Shown in pieces: positions 5,235 to 22,183 of a stretch of 64,000 nucleotides of DNA. The number at the start of each line of letters is the position of its first letter. Positions within the stretch are counted from its first letter, which is position 1. This DNA comes from Escherichia phage JLBYU50. Below the pieces are notes generated by a model that saw nothing but the letters and a program-made list of their open reading frames with translations, had not been told where the DNA came from and ran no database searches. Both the position numbers and the translations under genes were made by a program. The DNA is taken from sequence record OK272470.1. The stretch is one strand, 5' to 3'.

Positions 5235-7394
5235 ATGAAACAGGCTATTTTTACTGTAACTCGAAATACGAGAGTAAATGCCAGTTCATTCAGCTATAAG
5301 ACCGTCGATGGAACGGCGGTCGCTGGTAGAGATTATGTAGCTAAACAGGGAACAGTAACGTTCCCTTCTGATGCAGATTCTGCTACTGTAGTGGTTGATG
5401 TATATGAACGTCCGGCAAACTCTTTAGATCTTTATTTTACTCTTGAGATTACTAGCATAAGTCAAAATAACATGATGATCAACGAAGAAATTCGTTGTGT
5501 TATTACGACTGATCAATCGAATACAACCCCACTAACTTGGCCTGTTGTGAAGTCTAGAATGTTTGATCCTAAGTTTTGGACAATAGATTCTCAAGCAACA
5601 GAGAGCTGTTCTATTATCTCTAATGGTGATTCTTTCACAGCAAGAATGGTTAATAGGACAGTGGCTGGTCTTGCTGGGATTATTTGGTCAACTTACGATA
5701 AATATGATCACAAAGGATTAGGCTACCAAGAACATTCTGACTTAAGTAAAGAGAAACTTTGGTTTAAAATGGAACTTAGTCAAGGTGTTCCTGGATTAAA
5801 AGAAGAAAAATTATTGCCATCCTTAACAGTGACACTGAAGGATGAAACAGTTCATTATGTATCTCTAAACTTTTATGCAGAAGAAGTTTCAGAGGACGGT
5901 AAAACAGCAACAATAAAATTAGATTTCTCAAATTTAAAATCTGGGCCAGAAAATGATATTGTTGTTGACACTACACAGATAGATAATATGTTCTTCTCCT
6001 TGATCTCCACAAGGTATCAAGAAATTGAAGATGTTATACCTGTAGACAATATGGATCTTTCCTTTAAGTTTACCATACTAGAGCCTGATACTGGTTACAG
6101 TATGATGAATATGGGTAATTTAAATGTTCCGGCGCACACCATAAGAATGTGTACATCTTATGATGATATGTATAACCTAACCCCAGAGCGAGTTATTTCT
6201 AACACCTATAGATTAGGTTATAGAGATATGATTAACCATTATAATGGTATGTCACACTATTATCAATTTAGTTGGGATGCTGGATCTAATAAATGGGCTT
6301 TGAACAGAACAGAATATTTAAACCCAGCAACAGAAGCCTGGTTTGACAATTTCCACGCTAATGCAAAAGCTATGGGCTACACAGTAATGAACTCCTTAAG
6401 TTTTGAACTTATGAGTACAGTGTGTCCTGTAGAATGGGTACAACATGCTTGGAATGATGATCTTGCTGCTACAGGTTATGAGCCACCAAGTTATGTTTTA
6501 TCTCCTTCAATTGATGAAGGGATGAATTATTTACAAGGTGTAATAAATAAGATAGCTTCTATATCCGCTGCCAATGATCTTCCTGTTATTATTCAGGTTG
6601 GTGAACCGTGGTGGTGGTATAACACAGCTACCAATCTACCGTGTATTTATGATTATACAACCAAAGTTGCATTTAATAATGAAACTGGATTATATGCACA
6701 AGATGTTGGTACAGTTAAGAATTATAAAACTGGTACACCATATGATGAATATTATGCATTCCTATCTAAAACATTAGGACTACGTGTTGCTAAGTTTGCA
6801 ACGGATACTAGATTAGCATATCCTGGAGCGAAAGTTACATTGTTACCATTTGTGCCATCCATTTTGGGTAATGGTATGATGGAGTTTGTTAACTTCCCTA
6901 AAGATTATTATATCCCAGAAAACTTTGACTTTTATTGTTCAGAATGTTATGACTGGTTGTTGGAAGGCAAGATGGAAAGATCTTTCGACGCTATCACAAT
7001 ACCTAATGAGCAACTAGGTTTTAGTTACGATAAGATACATTATCTTGCAGGGTTTGTTCCAGATGCAACTCTAGCACCATTATATGGCTTTGATCCTGAA
7101 TCAAACTATAGAACATATTTGTGGAAAATGATTATAGGCAATATTGTATTGAATGACCAGAAGTTTGTTGGTTTATATCAATACATATGGGCTTACCCAC
7201 AAATAATGCATGATTCAATAACTGTTCTTAATTCAAAATCCCAAGTGTTTTATATGGGTAATGTGCCTTTGAATTGCTACTTGCAAGATATCACTCTTAA
7301 ACAGGTAAATGTTGAGATTGCCACTATAAGTGGAATTACATTAGCCACTAAATCTGGAGAAGATTTAGTAACAACACAAAAATTTTATATATAG
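5235..7394 (+). CDS. virion protein with N-terminal Calx-beta-like domain
   Basis: Motif TVDGTAVAGRDYVAKQGTVTFPSDADSATV resembles Calx-beta; 719 aa. Confidence 0.5.
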   Translation: MKQAIFTVTRNTRVNASSFSYKTVDGTAVAGRDYVAKQGTVTFPSDADSATVVVDVYERPANSLDLYFTLEITSISQNNMMINEEIRCVITTDQSNTTPLTWPVVKSRMFDPKFWTIDSQATESCSIISNGDSFTARMVNRTVAGLAGIIWSTYDKYDHKGLGYQEHSDLSKEKLWFKMELSQGVPGLKEEKLLPSLTVTLKDETVHYVSLNFYAEEVSEDGKTATIKLDFSNLKSGPENDIVVDTTQIDNMFFSLISTRYQEIEDVIPVDNMDLSFKFTILEPDTGYSMMNMGNLNVPAHTIRMCTSYDDMYNLTPERVISNTYRLGYRDMINHYNGMSHYYQFSWDAGSNKWALNRTEYLNPATEAWFDNFHANAKAMGYTVMNSLSFELMSTVCPVEWVQHAWNDDLAATGYEPPSYVLSPSIDEGMNYLQGVINKIASISAANDLPVIIQVGEPWWWYNTATNLPCIYDYTTKVAFNNETGLYAQDVGTVKNYKTGTPYDEYYAFLSKTLGLRVAKFATDTRLAYPGAKVTLLPFVPSILGNGMMEFVNFPKDYYIPENFDFYCSECYDWLLEGKMERSFDAITIPNEQLGFSYDKIHYLAGFVPDATLAPLYGFDPESNYRTYLWKMIIGNIVLNDQKFVGLYQYIWAYPQIMHDSITVLNSKSQVFYMGNVPLNCYLQDITLKQVNVEIATISGITLATKSGEDLVTTQKFYI

Positions 7395-7402
7395 GAGTAA
7401 AA

Positions 7403-9976
7403 ATGTCAACTACAATTACTAATTTACCCGAAACATCAAAAGTTAATGGTTCTGATTACCTGGTTTTAGACCAACCTGATAAGACTGTTAAAAGCACAGT
7501 TTCCAACTTTCTTGCTGACACTGGGGTGGTTTTAGCCACCCAGTTGAAAGATACAGATGGAGCAGATTTAATACAATCCTCAAATGGTAATACTGTTCAG
7601 GAAGAGTTGAATAACAATCTTCTTAATGATCGTGAACAGTGGCATCGTAGTCTTGCTGAGGCAGGGTTAACCCTTGTCAACGGTAGCTTTGAAGAAGGGG
7701 CTACAGTAAACAATAAGACGGATGCTGTTTGGCATATTGCTGGTGGGCAGTGCTATACGTGGGGTGGTGAATTTCCTAAAACAGTAGCTGCTGGTTCAAC
7801 TCCAGAAACATCTGGTGGCATTGGTCTTGGTGCATGGGTTAGTGTTGTGGATATGTCATTAAGGGATAATCTTTCAAACTCCAGTAATGATAATTACGGT
7901 GATGCGCTGGTAGCAGTTAAGCAGCCGTATACTACCGCAATAAGTAGAACGCAGCATGATAAAAATGCTGATGTACTTGATATTTCGGATTTTGGTGTAG
8001 ACATAACTGGTGCTTCTGATGAGGGTAGTAAGTTACAACAGATATTTAATGAGTTGGCCGCAGCAGGCAAGACTATTCGTATGCGCGGTTCTGTAAAGAC
8101 TACTATTAACCTAGATATAAGGTGTAACGTGCTGTTTGAGCAGGGTTTCAAACTAACTGGCGTGAAACTAGAAACTGGACCTCAGACTTACATTAATATT
8201 TTTAATCGTAATGTAGATGTAAGCCATATTATCCTAGATGGTATTGTTATGTGTTTCTACCCCGTAAGTTCCACTACTACTGTTAGAAACAAAAGATGTA
8301 TTACGTTTACATCCAACACGTTAGAAGATTCATGTGTTCAGGTGGGCGGTAATAACCTATCTGTACGTAACGTGTTAATTTCTAACAATACTTTTAAGAA
8401 CTCTGGGTCACGTATTCCAACAGCAATTCGCCTAACTAATGTCTCAAATATTGAGGTGAGTTTTAACCTTATCCATGAGTATGGTAGACCTATTTACCAA
8501 ACAGCAACCCGCTCTTTCTCCAACTACAATGTCAATATACACCACAATAATATGGTTTGTGAGTATGGTATAACTCTTGCGGGTACTACTGCTTTTAGGG
8601 TTAGTAAGTTCACAATTGCTGACAATGACATTGTTTGCGAGGTAAGAAATACAGCAACAGGTGGTCGGGATGGTATTGATGTAGTTTATGGTACTAGTGG
8701 TTTGATTACTAACAATAACATAAGGACAAACGGAAGAAGCCTTAGACTGTCTAATACTAAGGTAGATGTACTGTTTAACGATATGATATCCAGCGCAACC
8801 AGTGCATTCTCAGTATTAATGGCGAGTTGTTATGAGTCATCATTTGTTGGTAACACTGTTTTCAATAACTCAACTGCTGAAATTATTGTTGTACATGTGC
8901 AGGATGAAGCTGGTGGGCTTTACCGGAGTAATAACATTCGTGTGGAATCTAATACAATCAAGGGATTTGGTAGGCTGATTCGGGTATTAGATACAAAGGA
9001 TTATGTTGTCATCAATAACAGATTAATCAGAACATCAAACAATGGTAATGCAGTTATTATTGCGGATGGGACTAGTGACAGAGGCCAGGTGCATAGCAAT
9101 GTGGTAGTTGGTCCTGCTGGAGTGGTAGTATCTGATATAGGCGGAACCAACAATGCAACAACCCCTGCTGATACACTGCTGAGTGTTGCAGCTAACAGCA
9201 AGACCATAACAGCCGTGGCGAATGGATTAGTTGATCCAGACTTGAATAATTCGAAGGCATTCATCTTCAATGTTCAGGTGTCTGATGTTCAACTATTACG
9301 TGCGGTATCTTCTACAGGCTCAGGAAATGCTAAAACCGTATCTCAGTTCATGTCGGGTATAACTGGGGCAACTCTGGCATGGAATGGTACTGCCTTCCTA
9401 TCAGAGATGTCTGGACCACCAGATATATTTGTGAATGGTGTACTTCAAGATTCCTATGGTGCAGAAGACTATGTGTTCTACAGATCAGGGATGCTTATTG
9501 ATTCCCAGAATAAACTCAGTGTTAGAGACTTCCAGTGTATTGGGGATGGGGATACCATAAACGATGGGACTGGTAATATGACCCTTCGTAATATGGCAGC
9601 AGCACAATCGGCTGAGGGCGCTATTCACAGTGCTTTCTTCCGTGCTCCTCTTGTTATGAATGGCTCAGTGTATGACCCTACAGTAACAGGTATTGCATCT
9701 TCAGATTTGTTTAGCACAGCTCTAGATCCAAGAATGGCTATAGGACAAAAAGCTGATGGAACCTACGTTATTATTTGTGTTAATGGCAGAAACGCAGATG
9801 GGGTAAGTCCAGGCTGCACTATGCAGCAGCTAGCTTCTAAGTTTGTAGCCCTTGGTTGTATCAACGCAATGAATTTGGATGGCGGCGGTTCAGCTACTCT
9901 TTGGTATAACGGTGCTATCATTAATGACCCGGCGGATGGAAGTGAACGCCCTGTTTACCATTGTATGTATGTGTAA
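7403..9976 (+). CDS. tailspike: N-terminal anchor, right-handed beta-helix, C-terminal phosphodiester glycosidase (NAGPA)-like domain
   Basis: N-terminus MSTTITNLPETSKVNGSDYLVLDQ typical of tail fibre anchors; Asn/Gly/Thr-rich beta-helix repeats; C-terminal NAMNLDGGGSATLWYNG motif. Confidence 0.6.
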   Translation: MSTTITNLPETSKVNGSDYLVLDQPDKTVKSTVSNFLADTGVVLATQLKDTDGADLIQSSNGNTVQEELNNNLLNDREQWHRSLAEAGLTLVNGSFEEGATVNNKTDAVWHIAGGQCYTWGGEFPKTVAAGSTPETSGGIGLGAWVSVVDMSLRDNLSNSSNDNYGDALVAVKQPYTTAISRTQHDKNADVLDISDFGVDITGASDEGSKLQQIFNELAAAGKTIRMRGSVKTTINLDIRCNVLFEQGFKLTGVKLETGPQTYINIFNRNVDVSHIILDGIVMCFYPVSSTTTVRNKRCITFTSNTLEDSCVQVGGNNLSVRNVLISNNTFKNSGSRIPTAIRLTNVSNIEVSFNLIHEYGRPIYQTATRSFSNYNVNIHHNNMVCEYGITLAGTTAFRVSKFTIADNDIVCEVRNTATGGRDGIDVVYGTSGLITNNNIRTNGRSLRLSNTKVDVLFNDMISSATSAFSVLMASCYESSFVGNTVFNNSTAEIIVVHVQDEAGGLYRSNNIRVESNTIKGFGRLIRVLDTKDYVVINNRLIRTSNNGNAVIIADGTSDRGQVHSNVVVGPAGVVVSDIGGTNNATTPADTLLSVAANSKTITAVANGLVDPDLNNSKAFIFNVQVSDVQLLRAVSSTGSGNAKTVSQFMSGITGATLAWNGTAFLSEMSGPPDIFVNGVLQDSYGAEDYVFYRSGMLIDSQNKLSVRDFQCIGDGDTINDGTGNMTLRNMAAAQSAEGAIHSAFFRAPLVMNGSVYDPTVTGIASSDLFSTALDPRMAIGQKADGTYVIICVNGRNADGVSPGCTMQQLASKFVALGCINAMNLDGGGSATLWYNGAIINDPADGSERPVYHCMYV

Positions 9977-14098: not shown

Positions 14099-14440
14099 AT
14101 GGAGCTAACAGAAGTATGGGATATCGCTAAAGAGGCGATTATCCCTCTTATTGGCGTAATCTGGGTGGTCTTCAAACAGAAGATAGATGATATGGCAAGT
14201 GATTTGGATAAAATGGAAGACAAATACCGCGAACTAGAAAAGAAGTTGGTGTTTGTTGAATCCACTTATGCTACCAAAGCGGAACTTGCTCAAATGCTTA
14301 ACCAGATCAACTCTACATTAATGGCAAATAACACTGCCTTAGAACAGAAGATTGAAAAAATAATGGATTTAAAAAATGCTCCTGTTCAATTAATGTTAGA
14401 GGAGATTACGAAGCGCACACAAAGTAAGGACAAAAATTAA
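14099..14440 (+). CDS. membrane-anchored coiled-coil protein
   Basis: N-terminal hydrophobic helix IIPLIGVIWVVF followed by charged coiled-coil. Confidence 0.45.
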   Translation: MELTEVWDIAKEAIIPLIGVIWVVFKQKIDDMASDLDKMEDKYRELEKKLVFVESTYATKAELAQMLNQINSTLMANNTALEQKIEKIMDLKNAPVQLMLEEITKRTQSKDKN

Positions 14441-16854
14441 TGGCGAATTTTCCAACATATCCTGCTACGACACTAGAACAAGGTGTTGATCTGGTTATAT
14501 TCTCGTCTAACCAGATGCATGATGTTATTAATGGGGATGCTACAGCAACTGTAGAAACCGAAACAGGTTTAATACCTACACTGCGTAAAGCACTTGTTGA
14601 TAACTTCTTCTTTAAGAGTCCTGTTGCTTGGTCAGCAGGATCAACTGAAACTGTATTTAACCAGTTACGTTATTTTGAAAACGGTATCTTGAGTGGGTAC
14701 TATTATGCCCCATCTGCCACTACTGCGAACCCTGTACCTATGCAGGGAACACCTGTAGGAGACAGTAACTGGACTCTGTACGCTCTTAAAACTGAACAGT
14801 TAGCTTCAGATGTGTATCCTTGGTATTTTAAAGGTGCTACAGGATATGAAACAGAAATCAGTCCTCCTTATATCTTTGATAATGCTATTGTCACCATTAA
14901 CGGTGTAATTCAGATTCAAGGTGAAGCATTTACTATCAAAGATAGTAAAATTATTCTGGCAGAACCATTAGGTTTAGATCCGTCTACTGGTCTACCTAAC
15001 AAATTGTTTGCTTTTATTGGTAAAACAACAGCCTCTACTTCTTACGTAGAGAAAAACCTTTTGTCATCCACCACTGGTGCAGCAATGGTTGGTCTTCCAT
15101 CTGGAGGCAACCTGTTACAAGCTCAATACTTTGTAACGCCTGAGCAGTTTGGTGCAATTGGTGATGGAGTTACCGATGATACTCAAGCAATTTTAAAAAC
15201 CATTACTTTCGCTAACACGAATAACATTCAAGTACGTGCAGATAAGAATTATAGATTCACAAGCTCAATTGCTATGTCTGGTATTCGTTGGTATGGTGGT
15301 ACATTCACTGGTAACGGTGGAACAATGATTTCTACTGTGTCCTGTTGGATGGAAAACGTTCGCTTTGAAAAATGTTATGTTAAGATGTTAGGTGGTGATT
15401 GCCGATTCTATCGTAATATCTTCTCCAATGCAACATCTACAGCAGCATTCTTAATGCAAGCAATGACAAGTGAAGGTACGTTGGACTTCAGTTACAACGA
15501 AATGTATGGTTGTAAATATGCGATCCTGCAACAAGGTACTGGAGAAGTAATGACCTACGGGCGTTACTCTAACAACTATATTCACGATATTAAAGGTGAT
15601 GCTATTGAACTTAACGTAGTTCAAAAACACTACACTGAAGGTTTGATTATCGAGAATAACCACATTGCTAACGTAGATGCTTCTGGACAAGGGGCAAACT
15701 GGGGTATTGGTATTGGTGTAGCAGGTAGTGGCCCATATGGTGTTGATGTTCCTGATTCACAATATGTACGTAATTTCAGTATCGTTGGGAATAGGGTTTA
15801 CAATTGCCGTCAATGTTTACACGTTGAAATGGGTAAAAACTTCACAATACGTGATAATGAAGTTTATCCTAACACAGCAGTTTCAACAGGTACAGGTTTA
15901 ACTACTTGTGGTGTTGCATTATACGGATGCCAAGATTTTGAAGTTGATGGTTTAACTGGTTATCTGCTTAATGATCCATCTGTTTCAACACGCATGGTCT
16001 TTATTGACTGGGGTGTTAACAGTGGAAGATATGCGGGGCCACCAATTAACTTTACAATTAAGAATTTGGATATTCCAGAATCTTCAATTGAGATTGCAAC
16101 ATCTGGATCAGATGACTGGGAAAACTCTACAATTGTTAGTAATATCAATTGTAATGTTTTTAAATGGCGTGGGCTACCATCTAGCTCTACCTTTAATAAT
16201 ATTCGTTGCCGTAGTATTGACTTTATTGGTCAACACGGAAGCGGAGAAGGAAGTGGTGGCGGTTTCTATACTCGCAGCCAATTCACGTATATGAAGTGGG
16301 TAGGATGTACAGCACTTAGCGGAGATGAAACAACAGTTTCTTTTGCTAAAATCTACACTGATCGTTGCGATCAGGTTGGAAATAACTTTGGTGTTCCAAC
16401 TGCTGTTGATGGTACAGGTCATCGTGGGCCAGTTTTAACTACTATTTCTGAACAATATTTTACAGCTTATGATGAATTCCCAGGTGGGCGTGAATTCCCT
16501 ACTGGAACAGTTATTCATTGTGCAAGCGGTAAAAAACATGTTGTTACAGTAGGTGGTGCTTTCTTTAGTGCCAACGAGAAAATAAAAGCAACTGTTACAG
16601 GTCAAACCTATCTACAGTCTAATGCTTTAAACTGGGCTAGTAATGGCTACGCTAAAGCAGCAGGTACTAAGATTGTTATTCCAGGTGCAGGTGCAAATGG
16701 CGGCGATCTTGTGACAACTATAGCACGTGCTACATATGTGACAAATAGTTTGTACACAATAGATATTGCAGATCCAATTGTAACACCTACAGCAGAGAAT
16801 ACACAAATTAAAGCTCTGAACCCTGTTACTTTTGTTACTGTCAATAATGCTTAA
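14440..16854 (+). CDS. tailspike with pectate-lyase-like right-handed beta-helix
   Basis: 804 aa; repeated N/G/T-rich beta-helix rungs; terminator downstream. Confidence 0.6.
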   Translation: MANFPTYPATTLEQGVDLVIFSSNQMHDVINGDATATVETETGLIPTLRKALVDNFFFKSPVAWSAGSTETVFNQLRYFENGILSGYYYAPSATTANPVPMQGTPVGDSNWTLYALKTEQLASDVYPWYFKGATGYETEISPPYIFDNAIVTINGVIQIQGEAFTIKDSKIILAEPLGLDPSTGLPNKLFAFIGKTTASTSYVEKNLLSSTTGAAMVGLPSGGNLLQAQYFVTPEQFGAIGDGVTDDTQAILKTITFANTNNIQVRADKNYRFTSSIAMSGIRWYGGTFTGNGGTMISTVSCWMENVRFEKCYVKMLGGDCRFYRNIFSNATSTAAFLMQAMTSEGTLDFSYNEMYGCKYAILQQGTGEVMTYGRYSNNYIHDIKGDAIELNVVQKHYTEGLIIENNHIANVDASGQGANWGIGIGVAGSGPYGVDVPDSQYVRNFSIVGNRVYNCRQCLHVEMGKNFTIRDNEVYPNTAVSTGTGLTTCGVALYGCQDFEVDGLTGYLLNDPSVSTRMVFIDWGVNSGRYAGPPINFTIKNLDIPESSIEIATSGSDDWENSTIVSNINCNVFKWRGLPSSSTFNNIRCRSIDFIGQHGSGEGSGGGFYTRSQFTYMKWVGCTALSGDETTVSFAKIYTDRCDQVGNNFGVPTAVDGTGHRGPVLTTISEQYFTAYDEFPGGREFPTGTVIHCASGKKHVVTVGGAFFSANEKIKATVTGQTYLQSNALNWASNGYAKAAGTKIVIPGAGANGGDLVTTIARATYVTNSLYTIDIADPIVTPTAENTQIKALNPVTFVTVNNA

Positions 16855-16895: not shown

Positions 16896-18857
16896 GTGAT
16901 TTTAACACGTCCAAATAGTGCCATTGCAGACATGGTAGAGTCTCGCTATAGAAAGCGTAGAAGTTTTGCAAGTGGTTTTACCTTAAGAGATGCTCGTGAA
17001 GCATTGCTCTTTGAAGCTGACGGTAACTACTATCAGTGGAAAGGTTCTCTACCTAAAGTTGTACCTGCTAACTCTACTCCTACATCTACTGGAGGGATTT
17101 CAGATACAGCTTGGAAAAATGTGGGTAATGCAGATGACATTGCTCAAATAGAATCAGAATTAGATGCTATTGAAGCTGAAATTGAAGATCTTAGAGAATC
17201 CATTCCAGAAGCTGGTAAATCAGCTTACCAGATTGCCGTAGACAATGGTTTCCAAGGTACTGAGACAGACTGGTTGGCTTCTTTAAAAGGTGATCCAGGT
17301 GCTCCATTAAAGCTGCTAGGGACGCTATCTAATACCAACCAATTACCTACAACTGGAAACAATGCAGGAGATGCATGGATTGTAGGCGAGAATATGTATG
17401 CTTGGGATGGTACTGCTTGGAGAAAAGTAAACTCACAGGGGCCAGAAGGTAAATCAGCTTATCAAGTTTGGCTTGCAGCAGGAAACCAAGGTACAGAACT
17501 AGATTATCTTGCTTCAATTAAAGGTGATAAAGGGGAACCTGGCCCAGAGGGGCCACAAGGTGTGCCAGGTAACAATGCTAATGGTTTTGATTACCAAGGT
17601 GCAGCTAATTCCGTTTCAGATCTTCCTTCTGCATCTCCTGGAAACACATCTCAAGCATGGAGTATTGGTACATATCTATACGTGTCAAACGGTGTAGAAT
17701 GGATCAATATGGGCGCTATAGTGGGGCCAAAAGGAGATAAAGGCGACAAAGGAGATAAGGGTAACACTGGTGATTCTGCTTATCAAGTCTGGTTAAATGC
17801 TGGTAACGTTGGTACTATTGACGAATATATTGCCTCTCTGAAAGGAGAAAAAGGTGATAAGGGAGACAAGGGTGATCAAGGTGAGCAGGGTATACAAGGC
17901 TTGACGGGGCCAACTGGTGCAGGGTTGACAATTATTGATATTCTGACTGACACTTCTGAACTACCACAAACTGGAGAAGATGGTGATGGTTATCTGATCA
18001 ATAATGAACTTTGGGTTTGGTTGCAAGGAGCCACACAGTGGACAAATGTTGGTCGTTTAGCTGGTACTCCAATCACTGCAAAAGGACACGTTGCGTCTGC
18101 AAGTGCACTTCCTCCTACAGCCAATTACGGTGATGCTTATCTGACGGAAGATACAGGTCATCTTTACATTTACACCTATGATGAACAAACTCAAACTGCT
18201 GAATATGTAGATATGGGTAGTTTGAAAGGTGATAAGGGTGAAAAAGGTGACGCTGGTACTAACGGTACAGACGGTGCAACTTGGATTGTTAAAACAACAG
18301 ATCCAATCTCTAGTGATGGTAAACAAGGTGATTATGCCTTTAATATCTCCACTGGCGAGGTGTTCTTAAAAACATCTGCAACTGCCTGGACTTCTCAAGG
18401 TACACTGCCTAGCATCACAGATGCACCTAGTGACGGTAAAATTTATGCTCGTAAAGATGGAGCATGGGAAGAACTCACTAGTTCTGTAGATGGTCAAGAT
18501 ATAGTTCCAACAAAAGTAACAGCTAATTTTATAGAGGTTACAGCATACACCAACAACTCTGTTACAGGTGACTGGACACCTCCAGGAACACATAACATGA
18601 ATGTGTTGAATCTTACTGGTAACGCTACTATAAAAGCATGGCCTGGTGTCGAAGATAGCACAAAACCTAAACCATTCTCTGCAATAGTTTATCTTATCCA
18701 AGATGCCACTGGGGGTCATACTGTTACTTTAGATCCATCTTACAAAGTAATTGGTTCTAGTGATATTAATACAGATCCTAACGGAGTAACAATACTACAA
18801 CTAACATATTGTGGTATTGGCGATTACGTGGATGCTATTGTTGCTAAACGCACATAA
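16896..18857 (+). CDS. collagen-like repeat tail fibre (GTG start)
   Basis: Gly-X-Y tracts GDKGEPGPEGPQGVPG and GPKGDKGDKGDKGNTG; RBS aaggag 7 nt before GTG. Confidence 0.65.
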   Translation: MILTRPNSAIADMVESRYRKRRSFASGFTLRDAREALLFEADGNYYQWKGSLPKVVPANSTPTSTGGISDTAWKNVGNADDIAQIESELDAIEAEIEDLRESIPEAGKSAYQIAVDNGFQGTETDWLASLKGDPGAPLKLLGTLSNTNQLPTTGNNAGDAWIVGENMYAWDGTAWRKVNSQGPEGKSAYQVWLAAGNQGTELDYLASIKGDKGEPGPEGPQGVPGNNANGFDYQGAANSVSDLPSASPGNTSQAWSIGTYLYVSNGVEWINMGAIVGPKGDKGDKGDKGNTGDSAYQVWLNAGNVGTIDEYIASLKGEKGDKGDKGDQGEQGIQGLTGPTGAGLTIIDILTDTSELPQTGEDGDGYLINNELWVWLQGATQWTNVGRLAGTPITAKGHVASASALPPTANYGDAYLTEDTGHLYIYTYDEQTQTAEYVDMGSLKGDKGEKGDAGTNGTDGATWIVKTTDPISSDGKQGDYAFNISTGEVFLKTSATAWTSQGTLPSITDAPSDGKIYARKDGAWEELTSSVDGQDIVPTKVTANFIEVTAYTNNSVTGDWTPPGTHNMNVLNLTGNATIKAWPGVEDSTKPKPFSAIVYLIQDATGGHTVTLDPSYKVIGSSDINTDPNGVTILQLTYCGIGDYVDAIVAKRT

Positions 18858-18858
18858 T

Positions 18859-18885
18859 CAAAGCCCCTTCGGGGGCTTATTGTTT
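18859..18885 (+). terminator. rho-independent terminator
   Basis: aagcccc-ttcg-ggggctt hairpin then ATTGTTT. Confidence 0.65.
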
Positions 18886-18896
18886 AAGGAGATTAA

Positions 18897-21716
18897 ATGT
18901 ATCCTATTCCTTTATTTATGTCAACAACATCAGCTTCAGTAGTAACAGCTACATCTATAACCACTTCCTCTATTGGTATTGCAATAGTTGGTAGTAAAAA
19001 GCAACTGACATACACAGTTTCACCGGAAGATGGTGCGTTATTTGATATAGCTTTTTCATCTTCAGATAATACCAAAATGGTTATAGATAATAGTGGTATG
19101 ATGGAGTTTGTTGCCGAAGGTGGTTTTGATGCAATAATGACAGCTAAAAATAATTTAGGTGCTGTCTTAACTGATCAATCTGGTGGTTATGCTTCAGAAT
19201 TAAGCGTGTACACTGAAAGTCTATCAGCTATGGATGTAGGCACTACTCAACAGTTGGTTGCTACAATCAGTCCAGAAGGTGCTAAAGATCTTCCAGACAT
19301 GGTAATTACGTACACCACAACAGATCCAGAAGTAGCTACTGTAAGCCCTACAGGATTAATAACTGCTCTTAAAGATGGTAATTGCCGTATAGGTTGTACT
19401 GCAACTTATCAAGGAACAGTGGTGGCCTCTGATAGTTCTTATTTAGGTGTTAATGCTATTCCTGTTATTTCTAATGTAACAGCCGTGGCAAACAGCTATG
19501 GAGACGTTCGTGTTGCTTGGGATGTAGCTGATCCGCTAGATGGTGATACTTATACTGTAGAAGTATTAGATTTAAGTAATAATAGTGTTCAGTGGACTAC
19601 AACAACCACGAATACTTACGCTTACTTTGATATCTCTGACTCTATTCCTCTTTATGGGTTTGCTCCAACATACCTTAAAATTAGCGTTAAGAGCACCAAA
19701 GCAGCAGCCGTTATCTTTAATAACTCAATAGCTACAGATGATTCGTTCATTAAAGAAGTTATTGTTTTTGCTGGACAAGATAACGTAAATGCACACTTTA
19801 CAGAACTATCTGGTGCAAATAAAGCAGCAATGAGTAGCACAACAGCCCGTAATGCATATGCTACGCAACGTGGTTTAGCAAATGCTGAAGTTCTTCCGTT
19901 AAATACAGCTTCTGGATCATCAGCAGCAGATAAATATGCTGACGATAAAGCTGGAACAGGTACACCAGACAACTACTGGTATGATCTGGATAACACAGCA
20001 GATGGGCCATGCTTAACTAACTTTATCACTAAAGTCACACCTTATGCAAGTAAGGTTAAAGCCATTATTTGGGGACAAGGTGAAAATGATGCTGTATCAT
20101 CATCTTCAACTGTTGCAGGTAGATACAGTAACACTACACGTTACCATGATGCTACGATAGCTATCTTTGATAAGATGCGTACAATAGTTCCTGCTTCTCA
20201 AGCAAAAATTGTTTGGCAGATCCTGGGACGTTCTTATTTATATGGTGTAGAAGTTAATGGTGTGGATTGGCAGAAGTACAGAAATGTACAAAGAACCATC
20301 TCTACAGCACGTGATGATGTTATCATTGGTTCTTGGGTAGATGGTGCTGAACGTTACAGTGGTTATGTTTATGAAGAAGGTATTGATGGTCGTATCCATT
20401 ATATTTCTTCTGTATACCAAACAGCAGCTACAAAACTTGCTAAATCAGCAGCAGACGGTACAGACCTAACATCAACGTCACCTGTTTGGGTTGATATGGC
20501 TGTTCCAACTGGAGCAACAGCTACTTCCCAATCTAATCAAGATACAATTTTAGTATGGGATGCTCAAGGCTATAGTAAACACTACTTCCGTAATATTAAC
20601 GTCTTAACAGCATCTGTATTAACTGAACAAACGCTTAATACGAACAGCTATACGTTTACCTATGCAGATCAAGTAGAACAATATGGTTTTGCAGCAGGAA
20701 CTACTATATTTGATGTTGCATATTATGATGAAGCAAATGATGTGTTATCTCCTTTAGTACGTTTTAATGTTAACGTTACAGCAGGAACCGTAGAAGATAA
20801 ACCTGTAGTGATGGATTATGATTTAACACAAGAAACTCTTCCATCAGATGTTAAGGTTAATGGTGGGAACTCTTTTGCTCGTGCTTCTGGAGATACACTT
20901 GTAGCCACTAACACCTTGGTTGCTCCGTTGGAGTATGTTGGCACTACCCCTGTAGGTAGACGTGTAACAGCTAACACAGCTACACAAATTTTTGTCAACA
21001 ACGCCTTAACAAGCGCAAGCCCGTGGGTAAAGACCAACTTAACTGTTTCAACTTCATCTGATAAATCTCCGGCTGGAACTACTGCCAATGTATTCAAATT
21101 AACTCCGACTACAACATCTGGTAGTCATATCTTAACTGCAACATATACTAACGCGTACAACATATATGCCGGACGTAACTGGTCTGCCTCTGTTTTCTTG
21201 AAAGCGAACGGGATTACTAAGGCCAAACTAAGATTAAAAGCAGGAACTGAAGTTAATGAGGGTACTTTTGATTTAGCAGCAGGTACATTTACAGGAAGTG
21301 AAGCTAATATTATATCTATGGGTAACGGTTGGTATCGTGCTATTCTGCATAAAACAGGGATAGCCAAACAGTCCTCCATAAGTTTTGAAATAATTGCCTT
21401 GGATGCAACTGGTGCGGAGATTTTCGCTGGGGATGGTACTAGTAACCTTGCAGTTTGGTTGCCACAGCTTGAAGGTGCTCCTACAGGAGAAACATCAAAA
21501 GCTGGAGCGCCTTATGTCTGCACATATCCTGGAAGTTTAGGAGGAGTATCCTTCACTATACCAAGGAACGGACATACTGGTGTGGATGTTTACTATTCCA
21601 ACGGGGACGTTGTTCGTGACGTATTCTCTGGTACGGCATCTACTTGGACAATAAACTACTCCAGCTTGTACGATTGGGGATCAGTCTTTATTACAGGTTT
21701 GAAATATTACGACTAA
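18897..21716 (+). CDS. tailspike with Ig-like domain and SGNH/SASA-type carbohydrate esterase-like domain
   Basis: Ig-like segment (ATVSPTGLITALKDGNCRIGCTATYQG); FAGQDN and WGQGEND motifs resembling sialate-O-acetylesterase GQSN / WxQGESD. Confidence 0.55.
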   Translation: MYPIPLFMSTTSASVVTATSITTSSIGIAIVGSKKQLTYTVSPEDGALFDIAFSSSDNTKMVIDNSGMMEFVAEGGFDAIMTAKNNLGAVLTDQSGGYASELSVYTESLSAMDVGTTQQLVATISPEGAKDLPDMVITYTTTDPEVATVSPTGLITALKDGNCRIGCTATYQGTVVASDSSYLGVNAIPVISNVTAVANSYGDVRVAWDVADPLDGDTYTVEVLDLSNNSVQWTTTTTNTYAYFDISDSIPLYGFAPTYLKISVKSTKAAAVIFNNSIATDDSFIKEVIVFAGQDNVNAHFTELSGANKAAMSSTTARNAYATQRGLANAEVLPLNTASGSSAADKYADDKAGTGTPDNYWYDLDNTADGPCLTNFITKVTPYASKVKAIIWGQGENDAVSSSSTVAGRYSNTTRYHDATIAIFDKMRTIVPASQAKIVWQILGRSYLYGVEVNGVDWQKYRNVQRTISTARDDVIIGSWVDGAERYSGYVYEEGIDGRIHYISSVYQTAATKLAKSAADGTDLTSTSPVWVDMAVPTGATATSQSNQDTILVWDAQGYSKHYFRNINVLTASVLTEQTLNTNSYTFTYADQVEQYGFAAGTTIFDVAYYDEANDVLSPLVRFNVNVTAGTVEDKPVVMDYDLTQETLPSDVKVNGGNSFARASGDTLVATNTLVAPLEYVGTTPVGRRVTANTATQIFVNNALTSASPWVKTNLTVSTSSDKSPAGTTANVFKLTPTTTSGSHILTATYTNAYNIYAGRNWSASVFLKANGITKAKLRLKAGTEVNEGTFDLAAGTFTGSEANIISMGNGWYRAILHKTGIAKQSSISFEIIALDATGAEIFAGDGTSNLAVWLPQLEGAPTGETSKAGAPYVCTYPGSLGGVSFTIPRNGHTGVDVYYSNGDVVRDVFSGTASTWTINYSSLYDWGSVFITGLKYYD

Positions 21717-21748
21717 TAAAAAAGGAGCCTAATGGCTCCTTTTCTTTT
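21715..21748. terminator. bidirectional terminator between convergent structural (+) and replication (-) blocks
   Basis: ggagcc-taat-ggctcc hairpin flanked by A6 upstream and TTTTCTTTT downstream. Confidence 0.7.
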
Positions 21749-21751
21749 ATC

Positions 21752-22183
21752 TTAATCAGTGAAAATTACGCTTACATCTTCTTTAGAAAAGAGTTTATGA
21801 TCTTCACCTTTTGTCTCAAGAGTTTCATACAGGTTAAGAAGTTCTGAAACATCTTTCTCTACCAGTTTCTTCAATGTTGCAATTTTCTGTTTGCGATTCT
21901 TAATACGTTCAGCTACAACCTTACGTTGGTATCCAGCAGTACGATAACCTGAGAAAGTTACACCAGTGAGACTTGCAGTTACAGGATCGTAATGACGTTC
22001 AATCTGAAATTTATTAAAAGGTACAGCGTCATCACGAATAATCTTCCCGCCATTACTTACTTGACGAAGACCAGTAACTTGTTCTAGTCGTGCCATAGAA
22101 ATCTTTGGAGACAGACCAGAGTCTAGGTTCATACCATTGTTAATCAGTGCTTTCAGGGTGATTTTGCTGTTCAGTGTACTCAT
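21752..22183 (-). CDS. hypothetical protein
   Basis: RBS ggagga before ATG at 22183; 5' end overlaps 3' end of methyltransferase gene by 44 nt. Confidence 0.5.
   Translation of the reverse strand: MSTLNSKITLKALINNGMNLDSGLSPKISMARLEQVTGLRQVSNGGKIIRDDAVPFNKFQIERHYDPVTASLTGVTFSGYRTAGYQRKVVAERIKNRKQKIATLKKLVEKDVSELLNLYETLETKGEDHKLFSKEDVSVIFTD

Follow-up and report, generated by a model that had tools for sequence, protein, structure and literature searches.

Phage N4 gp65, a non-contractile tail sheath protein of known structure (PDB 9LC0, 9YF4 and 9YF5), is an established receptor-binding protein (PMC13434306) and contains two copies of one domain, at amino acids (aa) 433-602 and 717-1023. Esterases of the SGNH fold are already known on phage receptor-binding proteins, namely G7C gp63.1, Moo19/B2 and Klebsiella prophage proteins (PMC13123978, PMC8594841). 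These proteins are trimeric and of the tailspike type, have a catalytic serine and show measured esterase activity. Here, we analyzed a gene at 18897..21716 on the + strand of a 64,000-nucleotide stretch of Escherichia phage JLBYU50 (OK272470.1), called the window in the following. The phage is a Justusliebigvirus, a phi92-like Escherichia coli myophage of the Stephanstirmvirinae. From an ATG start, the gene encodes a modular virion fibre or adhesin of 939 aa, the ortholog of phi92 gp152/153. A first-pass annotation had described this window protein as a tailspike with a deacetylating, receptor-destroying activity. Its closest solved relative is N4 gp65. With G7C gp63.1 and similar proteins it shares an SGNH-fold domain on a receptor-binding protein, but this domain is only a remote, fold-level relative, lacks the serine and is accompanied by no trimerisation or beta-helix module that we could find. 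The fold, the homology, the substitution of the serine together with its conservation, and the domain architecture are directly established. With modest confidence we favour the view that the window protein is an accessory adhesin, in which a lectin-like pseudo-esterase SGNH domain binds a surface glycan and catalysis has been lost.

The SGNH-fold domain and its active site

The domain in question lies in the center of the protein (aa 276-532; 19722..20492, +). The first-pass annotation had noted here two motifs, FAGQDNVNAHF (aa 291-301, nt 19767-19799) and IIWGQGENDA (aa 390-399, nt 20064-20093), that resemble the GQSN and WxQGESD blocks of sialate O-acetylesterase-type domains. Homologues were collected by an exhaustive phmmer search with aa 271-570, resulting in 78 cluster representatives. 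This search replaced an earlier word-indexed search with aa 271-630, which gave two fragments. A related-locus search with the single window protein returned only two near-identical IMG/VR contigs and no added diversity. In the alignment of the representatives, block I (GQSN), block III (WxQGExD) and block V ((I/V)H(Y/L)) are present in most members and stand in register with the motifs of the window protein.

The hidden Markov model of Pfam SASA (PF03629; gathering score 24.8 bits) gave a divided result. Searched alone, the window protein stays below the gathering score, with 14.4 bits at full length (E 0.029) and 16.7 bits for the domain alone. The model does match 20 of the 30 aligned homologues (best match 3.1e-13), and distant bacterial family members with RTX or cadherin domains exceed the gathering score with 40-48 bits. 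Judged by sequence comparison, SASA membership of the window protein holds only transitively, via these homologues. A profile of the family was compared with the PDB and found N4 gp65 (9LC0/9YF4, 1.7e-91) as well as the SASA-type esterases 2APJ (6e-5) and 1ZMB (2e-4). For aa 266-575, an AlphaFold2 model based on the family alignment reached a predicted local distance difference test score (pLDDT) of 91 and a predicted template modelling score of 0.86. When this model was searched against the PDB with Foldseek, N4 gp65 was again the top hit (TMq 0.78), followed by XAC1771 (7KMM), 1ZMB, CE2 enzymes, PatB and SIAE; SGNH esterases and acyltransferases were found at a probability of 1.0. The same fold is present in many phage tail proteins of BFVD, a library of predicted viral structures. 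The phmmer alignment, the SASA matches, the profile and the Foldseek hits thus establish the central domain as a true homologue of the SASA/SGNH fold, and the resemblance of the motifs as homology, not chance, albeit with a serine to aspartate exchange in the first motif. Compared with SASA/CE6-type acetylesterases (PF03629; 1ZMB, 2APJ, SIAE 8F9O, XAC1771 7KMM), the domain has the same fold and the same blocks GQxN, G, QGExD and H. It differs from them by an Asp in place of the nucleophile Ser, by the sub-threshold score, by a large insertion between blocks I and III and by being embedded in a virion fibre.

In SGNH/SASA enzymes the serine of block I is the nucleophile and is located where strand beta1 passes into the next helix. 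Block I of the window protein reads G293-Q294-D295-N296 (19773..19784, +), and at the position of the nucleophile the GAT codon (19779-19781) encodes Asp295. This column holds a serine in 47 of 47 canonical (GQS...H) family domains. In the AlphaFold2 model, Asp295 lies exactly at the junction of beta1 (aa 287-293) and the following helix (aa 295-301), and the GQSNMAG sequence of 2APJ and 1ZMB falls on the profile positions of GQDN. There is no serine elsewhere in FAGQDNVNAHF. A sequencing error was considered and rejected, because no serine codon can be reached from GAT by fewer than two substitutions and the same residue is found in independently sequenced genomes.

The remaining site was mapped on the family alignment and comprises Gly340, the conserved oxyanion-loop glycine of block II (19914..19916, +), block III with W392-G-Q394-G395-E396-N-D398 (20070..20090, +), and His501 of block V in the sequence IDGRIHY (20397..20399, +). 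The canonical domains share 25 positions conserved to 80% or more, and the window protein retains 23 of them, including Gly293, Gln294, Gly340, Trp392, Gln394-Gly395-Glu396, Asp398 and His501. The two exceptions are Ser295 to Asp and Pro437 to Lys. In block V, Asp497 is placed at His-4 and not at the canonical His-3, which is occupied by Gly498. Bacterial relatives have DxxH at this site, and many phage relatives are without the Asp. A Ser-His dyad is sufficient in some SASA enzymes. Mapping of the catalytic residues therefore recovered His501 and the rest of the site, whereas the nucleophile serine is replaced by Asp295. Because this serine is absent, acetylesterase activity of the domain appears doubtful, and the deacetylating, receptor-destroying function proposed at first does not fit block I.

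The main rival explanation holds that the domain is nevertheless active as a carbohydrate O-acetylesterase and removes acetyl groups from O-antigen, capsule or another glycan, with a non-canonical Asp295/His501 pair in which the Asp acts as nucleophile or as a water-activating general base. The SGNH/SASA fold, the retention of the block II Gly, of QGE-D and of His501 within the 23 conserved positions, and the strict conservation of Asp295 would all agree with such an enzyme, but the defining nucleophile is missing, the block I motif holds no serine at all, and the triad Asp is shifted out of register, to His-4. We know of no SGNH hydrolase with an Asp (carboxylate) nucleophile. Moreover, a relative from the phage Av-05, described below, has the same Asp and has lost three more residues of the site. 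Esterase receptor-binding proteins of the SGNH fold are proven in other phages, as in G7C gp63.1 and the Klebsiella prophages (PMC13123978), and GenBank annotators have applied the label 'tail carbohydrate esterase'. Taking both sides into account, we regard an active esterase as unlikely. More improbable still is the specific proposal that Asp295 and His501 form a working catalytic pair with altered chemistry, possibly on a surface glycan such as the N4 glycan receptor (NGR). Possible chemistries would be those of a general-base, water-activating esterase, of an amidase or N-deacetylase, or of a covalent glycan trap; if true, this would be the first SGNH-fold enzyme with a carboxylate replacing the serine nucleophile.

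Conservation and catalytic decay among relatives

GQDN is present in all six other Justusliebigvirus sequences that were translated (ALITA, PaulScherrer, JohannJBalmer, muut, phi92 and KKE7M). Around the motif, KKE7M differs at 4 of 60 nucleotides, and 4 of the 4 differences are synonymous. Within Justusliebigvirus, the ratio of non-synonymous to synonymous substitution rates (dN/dS) of the SGNH domain is about 0.08-0.11 (small counts) and is among the lowest in the gene. These low values show purifying selection on a domain that still functions as a protein.

This constraint bears on a further explanation, in which the degenerate SGNH domain is purely a structural spacer that gives the fibre length or rigidity, and the receptor is contacted by the C-terminal jelly-roll alone or, in short alleles, by other fibres. 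The C-terminal module is indeed exchangeable, resembles a carbohydrate-binding module (CBM) and is the most variable part of the protein, and a fully degenerate second copy of the domain has been kept in the N4 sheath protein gp65. However, the pocket residues are conserved far beyond the needs of a spacer, the SGNH domain has one of the lowest dN/dS values in the gene, and short alleles of 628 aa have an intact SGNH domain without the jelly-roll. A spacer role is therefore considered improbable.

The SGNH-like domain was found in 106 phage records, which belong to Justusliebigvirus, to three Av-05-like phages and to N4-like podophages. Among the representatives, the Av-05-type protein (647 aa, 41% identical overall) has the only other full domain that pairs Asp at the nucleophile position with a retained His. 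Its block I reads GGDN, and Gln294, Gly340 and Gln394 are also lost. These losses indicate that catalysis is under relaxed constraint in the Asp lineage. Other phage-type members without the serine have GQAN, GQMN, GHEN, GDAN or GQVN, and in these the His is usually lost too. In N4 gp65, copy 1 is truncated and has kept the Ser without a His block, and copy 2 is complete and retains neither Ser nor block III nor His. The varied serine losses, together with the two gp65 copies, show that virion-borne members of the family have repeatedly lost their catalytic apparatus, while the fold is kept. In comparison with N4 gp65, the window protein has a full domain in which only the Ser is changed, and it has extra Big_2 domains and a CBM-like C-terminus.

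From these comparisons we infer a loss of catalysis, a binding function, a ligand and a position on the virion for the window protein. In the mechanism that we propose, the SGNH domain would derive from carbohydrate O-acetylesterases, the same module being present twice in N4 gp65. Replacement of the serine by Asp295 in this lineage would have abolished the turnover of acetyl esters and left the rest of the pocket in place. The preserved substrate cleft might then bind a surface polysaccharide reversibly. The ligand would probably be acetylated, and NGR is a candidate. Together, the SGNH domain, the immunoglobulin (Ig)-like domains and the C-terminal jelly-roll would raise adsorption. A precedent for an esterase cleft as a carbohydrate-binding site is given by the CE2 esterases (CtCE2, 2W9X/2WAO), which have an SGNH fold like the domain described here. 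The CE2 structure 2W9X is among the Foldseek hits, and its title refers to 'divergent catalytic and non-catalytic binding functions'. The CE2 esterases, however, are bacterial cellulosomal proteins, are still catalytically competent and have no close sequence relation to the window domain.

Several points weigh against a non-catalytic binder. Every other residue of the active site, including His501, is kept, as would be expected of a still-active enzyme. Asp295 is conserved rather than variable, and a chemical role for it could exist. The deep comparison rests on two lineages only, Justusliebigvirus and the Av-05-like phages. Finally, a cryo-electron microscopy study of phi92 published in 2026 does not place or mention gp152/153.

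Domain architecture, alleles and genomic setting

The protein begins with two Big_2 Ig-like domains (approximately aa 10-190; 18924..19466, +). Pfam Big_2 matches aa 112-170 in two stretches (E 1.2e-13), PHROG families of Ig-domain tail and structural proteins cover aa 10-205, and the Ig region of 6n1a also matches, which agrees with the Ig-like segment that the first-pass annotation had placed ahead of the motifs. A beta-sandwich module that is deleted in phi92 follows (aa 191-275; 19467..19721, +), homologous to aa 619-716 of N4 gp65, the domain preceding its SGNH copy 2. Behind the SGNH domain lies another beta-sandwich module (aa 533-628; 20493..20780, +), related by homology to the modules that recur in the C-terminal part of gp65. 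An optional extension at the C-terminus (aa 629-939) contains a CBM-like beta jelly-roll (approximately aa 693-871; 20973..21509, +), which AlphaFold2 modelled in blocks at pLDDT 75-98. With Foldseek the jelly-roll matched the baseplate proteins Pa193 gp46 and E217 gp45 and the families CBM22/27/61/4; its sequence homologues bear Laminin_G_3, and the RcGTA head-spike fibre was matched as well. The jelly-roll thus belongs to the same family of phage surface beta-sandwiches as RcGTA Rcc01080 (6TB9), Pa193 gp46 and E217 gp45. These proteins have only this C-terminal module in common with the window protein, and it is missing from the short alleles of muut and phi92.

The designation as a tailspike could not be upheld. 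Neither the models nor the profile searches showed a beta-helix anywhere in the parts of the 939-aa protein that they covered, and the modelled parts (aa 266-575 and 620-939) consist of the SGNH fold and beta-sandwiches. Pfam tailspike, pectate-lyase, Tail_spike_N and trimerisation modules gave no match in the 939-aa protein, whereas two upstream open reading frames (ORFs) do match. With its Ig and beta-sandwich, SGNH-like and CBM-like modules, and with the N4 sheath and receptor-binding protein gp65 as closest solved relative, the architecture is that of a modular fibre and rules out a tailspike. Instead, the tailspike proper is encoded by the colanidase-like ORF 14440..16854 in the neighbourhood of the gene.

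Alleles of the gene differ considerably. At the DNA level, the gene is 98.7% identical to that of Escherichia phage Antha and 97-98% identical in many other Justusliebigvirus genomes. It occurs in more than 50 sequenced phages, where its orthologs are named 'hypothetical protein', 'tail protein', 'lateral tail fiber protein', 'non-contractile tail sheath' and, in two records, 'tail carbohydrate esterase'. In phi92 (NC_023693; locus L004, 2411..4073), the ortholog is split into gp152 and gp153 by two frameshifts and lacks aa 199-272 and the C-terminal extension. ALITA (locus L001, 9001..11820) has an in-frame stop at codon 720. A short form of 628 aa without the C-terminal extension is found in muut (locus L007, 1691..3577) and phi92, and the form of JohannJBalmer (locus L006, 1501..4329) is 942 aa long and diverged at its C-terminus. 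The long alleles of 939 and 942 aa thus have differing C-termini, and the C-terminal part is the most variable one. In the comparison with muut, the synonymous rate dS leaps to about 1.1 in aa 533-628; this points to a recombination junction directly after the SGNH domain. Metagenomic proteins with Big_2 domains and the C-terminal module, but no SGNH domain, were also observed (P0081-P0083). Because the gene is broken in phi92, carries a stop in ALITA and exists in short and long alleles, the protein appears to be accessory and dispensable in laboratory-propagated phages, at least on laboratory hosts.

The gene is the final one of the + strand tail-fibre block. A ribosome-binding site, AAGGAG (18886..18891, +), can be read directly in the sequence 5 nt ahead of the ATG. 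Directly upstream of it lies a GC-rich, terminator-like hairpin with a 7 bp stem and a weak T tract (18861..18878, +), which separates the gene from the collagen-like fibre gene before it and may attenuate read-through out of the fibre operon. A strong hairpin terminator with a 10 bp stem (21720..21743; no strand assigned) is shared with the convergent gene 21752..22183 (-), and convergent replication genes lie beyond it. A scan for promoters near the gene gave no excess of sites over shuffled sequence.

Upstream lie the colanidase-type tailspike gene 14440..16854, similar to phi92 gp150, and ORF 16896..18857 (+), which encodes a gp151-like collagen-repeat fibre of 653 aa. This ORF, the ortholog of phi92 gp151, has a Tail_spike_N match (3.3e-21), a weak Fibritin_C-like match, and collagen-like G-x-y repeats interspersed with repeated modules of about 50 aa. 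In the phi92 cryo-electron microscopy paper of 2026, gp151 could not be fitted into the density of fibre II. Further upstream, ORF 7403..9976 (+; 857 aa) combines Tail_spike_N (4.3e-19) with a C-terminal NAGPA phosphodiester-glycosidase domain (PF09992, 4.6e-25) and may be a spike that cleaves phosphodiester-linked glycans. By gene order, it presumably occupies the slot of the endosialidase gp143 in phi92. As a side observation, several records named 'Campylobacter phage' (MG065639, MG065645, MG065656, MG065689 and similar ones) with C. jejuni as the stated host are about 93% identical in protein to Justusliebigvirus and Vequintavirinae of E. coli. The host label of these records is probably wrong, or the samples were contaminated.

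Relation to N4 gp64 and gp65 and the N4 glycan receptor

The window protein is homologous to aa 428-1023 of N4 gp65, and this homology includes the beta-sandwich modules that flank the domain. Both are surface virion proteins of NGR-dependent coliphages. Their identity is only 20-23%, and gp65 has 10 domains, including an N-terminal NCTSP_N. Neither NCTSP_N nor the gp64-type TIM barrel is present in the window protein; both are found in ORF 5235..7394 (+). This ORF encodes 719 aa with Calx-beta, NCTSP_N (PF23844) and TIM-barrel_NCTSP (PF23845, 7.7e-82), and it is homologous to N4 gp64 (tblastn E 5e-31) and to the N-terminus of gp65. Since NCTSP_N and the TIM barrel reside in 5235..7394, and the SGNH and beta-sandwich modules in 18897..21716, the modules of the N4 gp64/gp65 sheath heterodimer are split over two genes here.

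According to the BASEL papers and Sellner et al. (PMC8594841, PMC8669472, PMC11990801), the NGR glycan is required by N4, by phi92-like phages and by Vequintavirinae, and all of these have a 'glycan deacetylase' fibre in common. We considered whether the window protein could be this BASEL 'glycan deacetylase lateral tail fibre', which was aligned with N4 'Gp64', and rejected it, as the N4 gp64-like protein is ORF 5235..7394. A gp64-like TIM-barrel protein occurs in 327 phage records, including rV5-like phages, and none of the 106 records with the SGNH-like domain is rV5-like. Because the NGR-dependent rV5-like phages have the TIM-barrel protein without the SGNH domain, the shared NGR phenotype tracks ORF 5235..7394.

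The same distribution is relevant to the proposal that the window protein specifically binds NGR or NfrA, equivalent to the corresponding part of N4 gp65. Homology to gp65 would be in line with this proposal, as would the requirement of both Justusliebigvirus and N4 for wecB/nfrB, that is for NGR (PMC8669472, PMC11990801). However, rV5-like Vequintavirus are NGR-dependent without the domain, and the gene is disrupted in phi92. We consider such a specific NGR or NfrA binder quite unlikely, and NGR is regarded as a possible ligand of the window protein.

The reading that we prefer thus is an accessory adhesin with a non-catalytic, glycan-binding SGNH domain. In the literature searched, we did not find a description of a nucleophile replacement or of repeated catalytic decay in SGNH modules of the N4 gp65 type. 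An SGNH esterase domain on a phage receptor-binding protein is nowadays annotated as a deacetylase as a matter of routine, and the case described here illustrates that an esterase label can fail at a single decisive residue. A modest practical point for host-range prediction and for enzyme mining in phage genomes is to check the block I serine before an esterase is called. In the phi92-like and Av-05-like lineage of broad-host-range coliphages, and in N4 gp65 as well, the catalytic apparatus of the SGNH modules is missing or degenerate; this points to a repeated conversion of esterases to binders. If this holds true, the domain would represent a compact, naturally occurring lectin with an E. 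coli surface glycan as its ligand and would give a clue to the role of the homologous region of N4 gp65.

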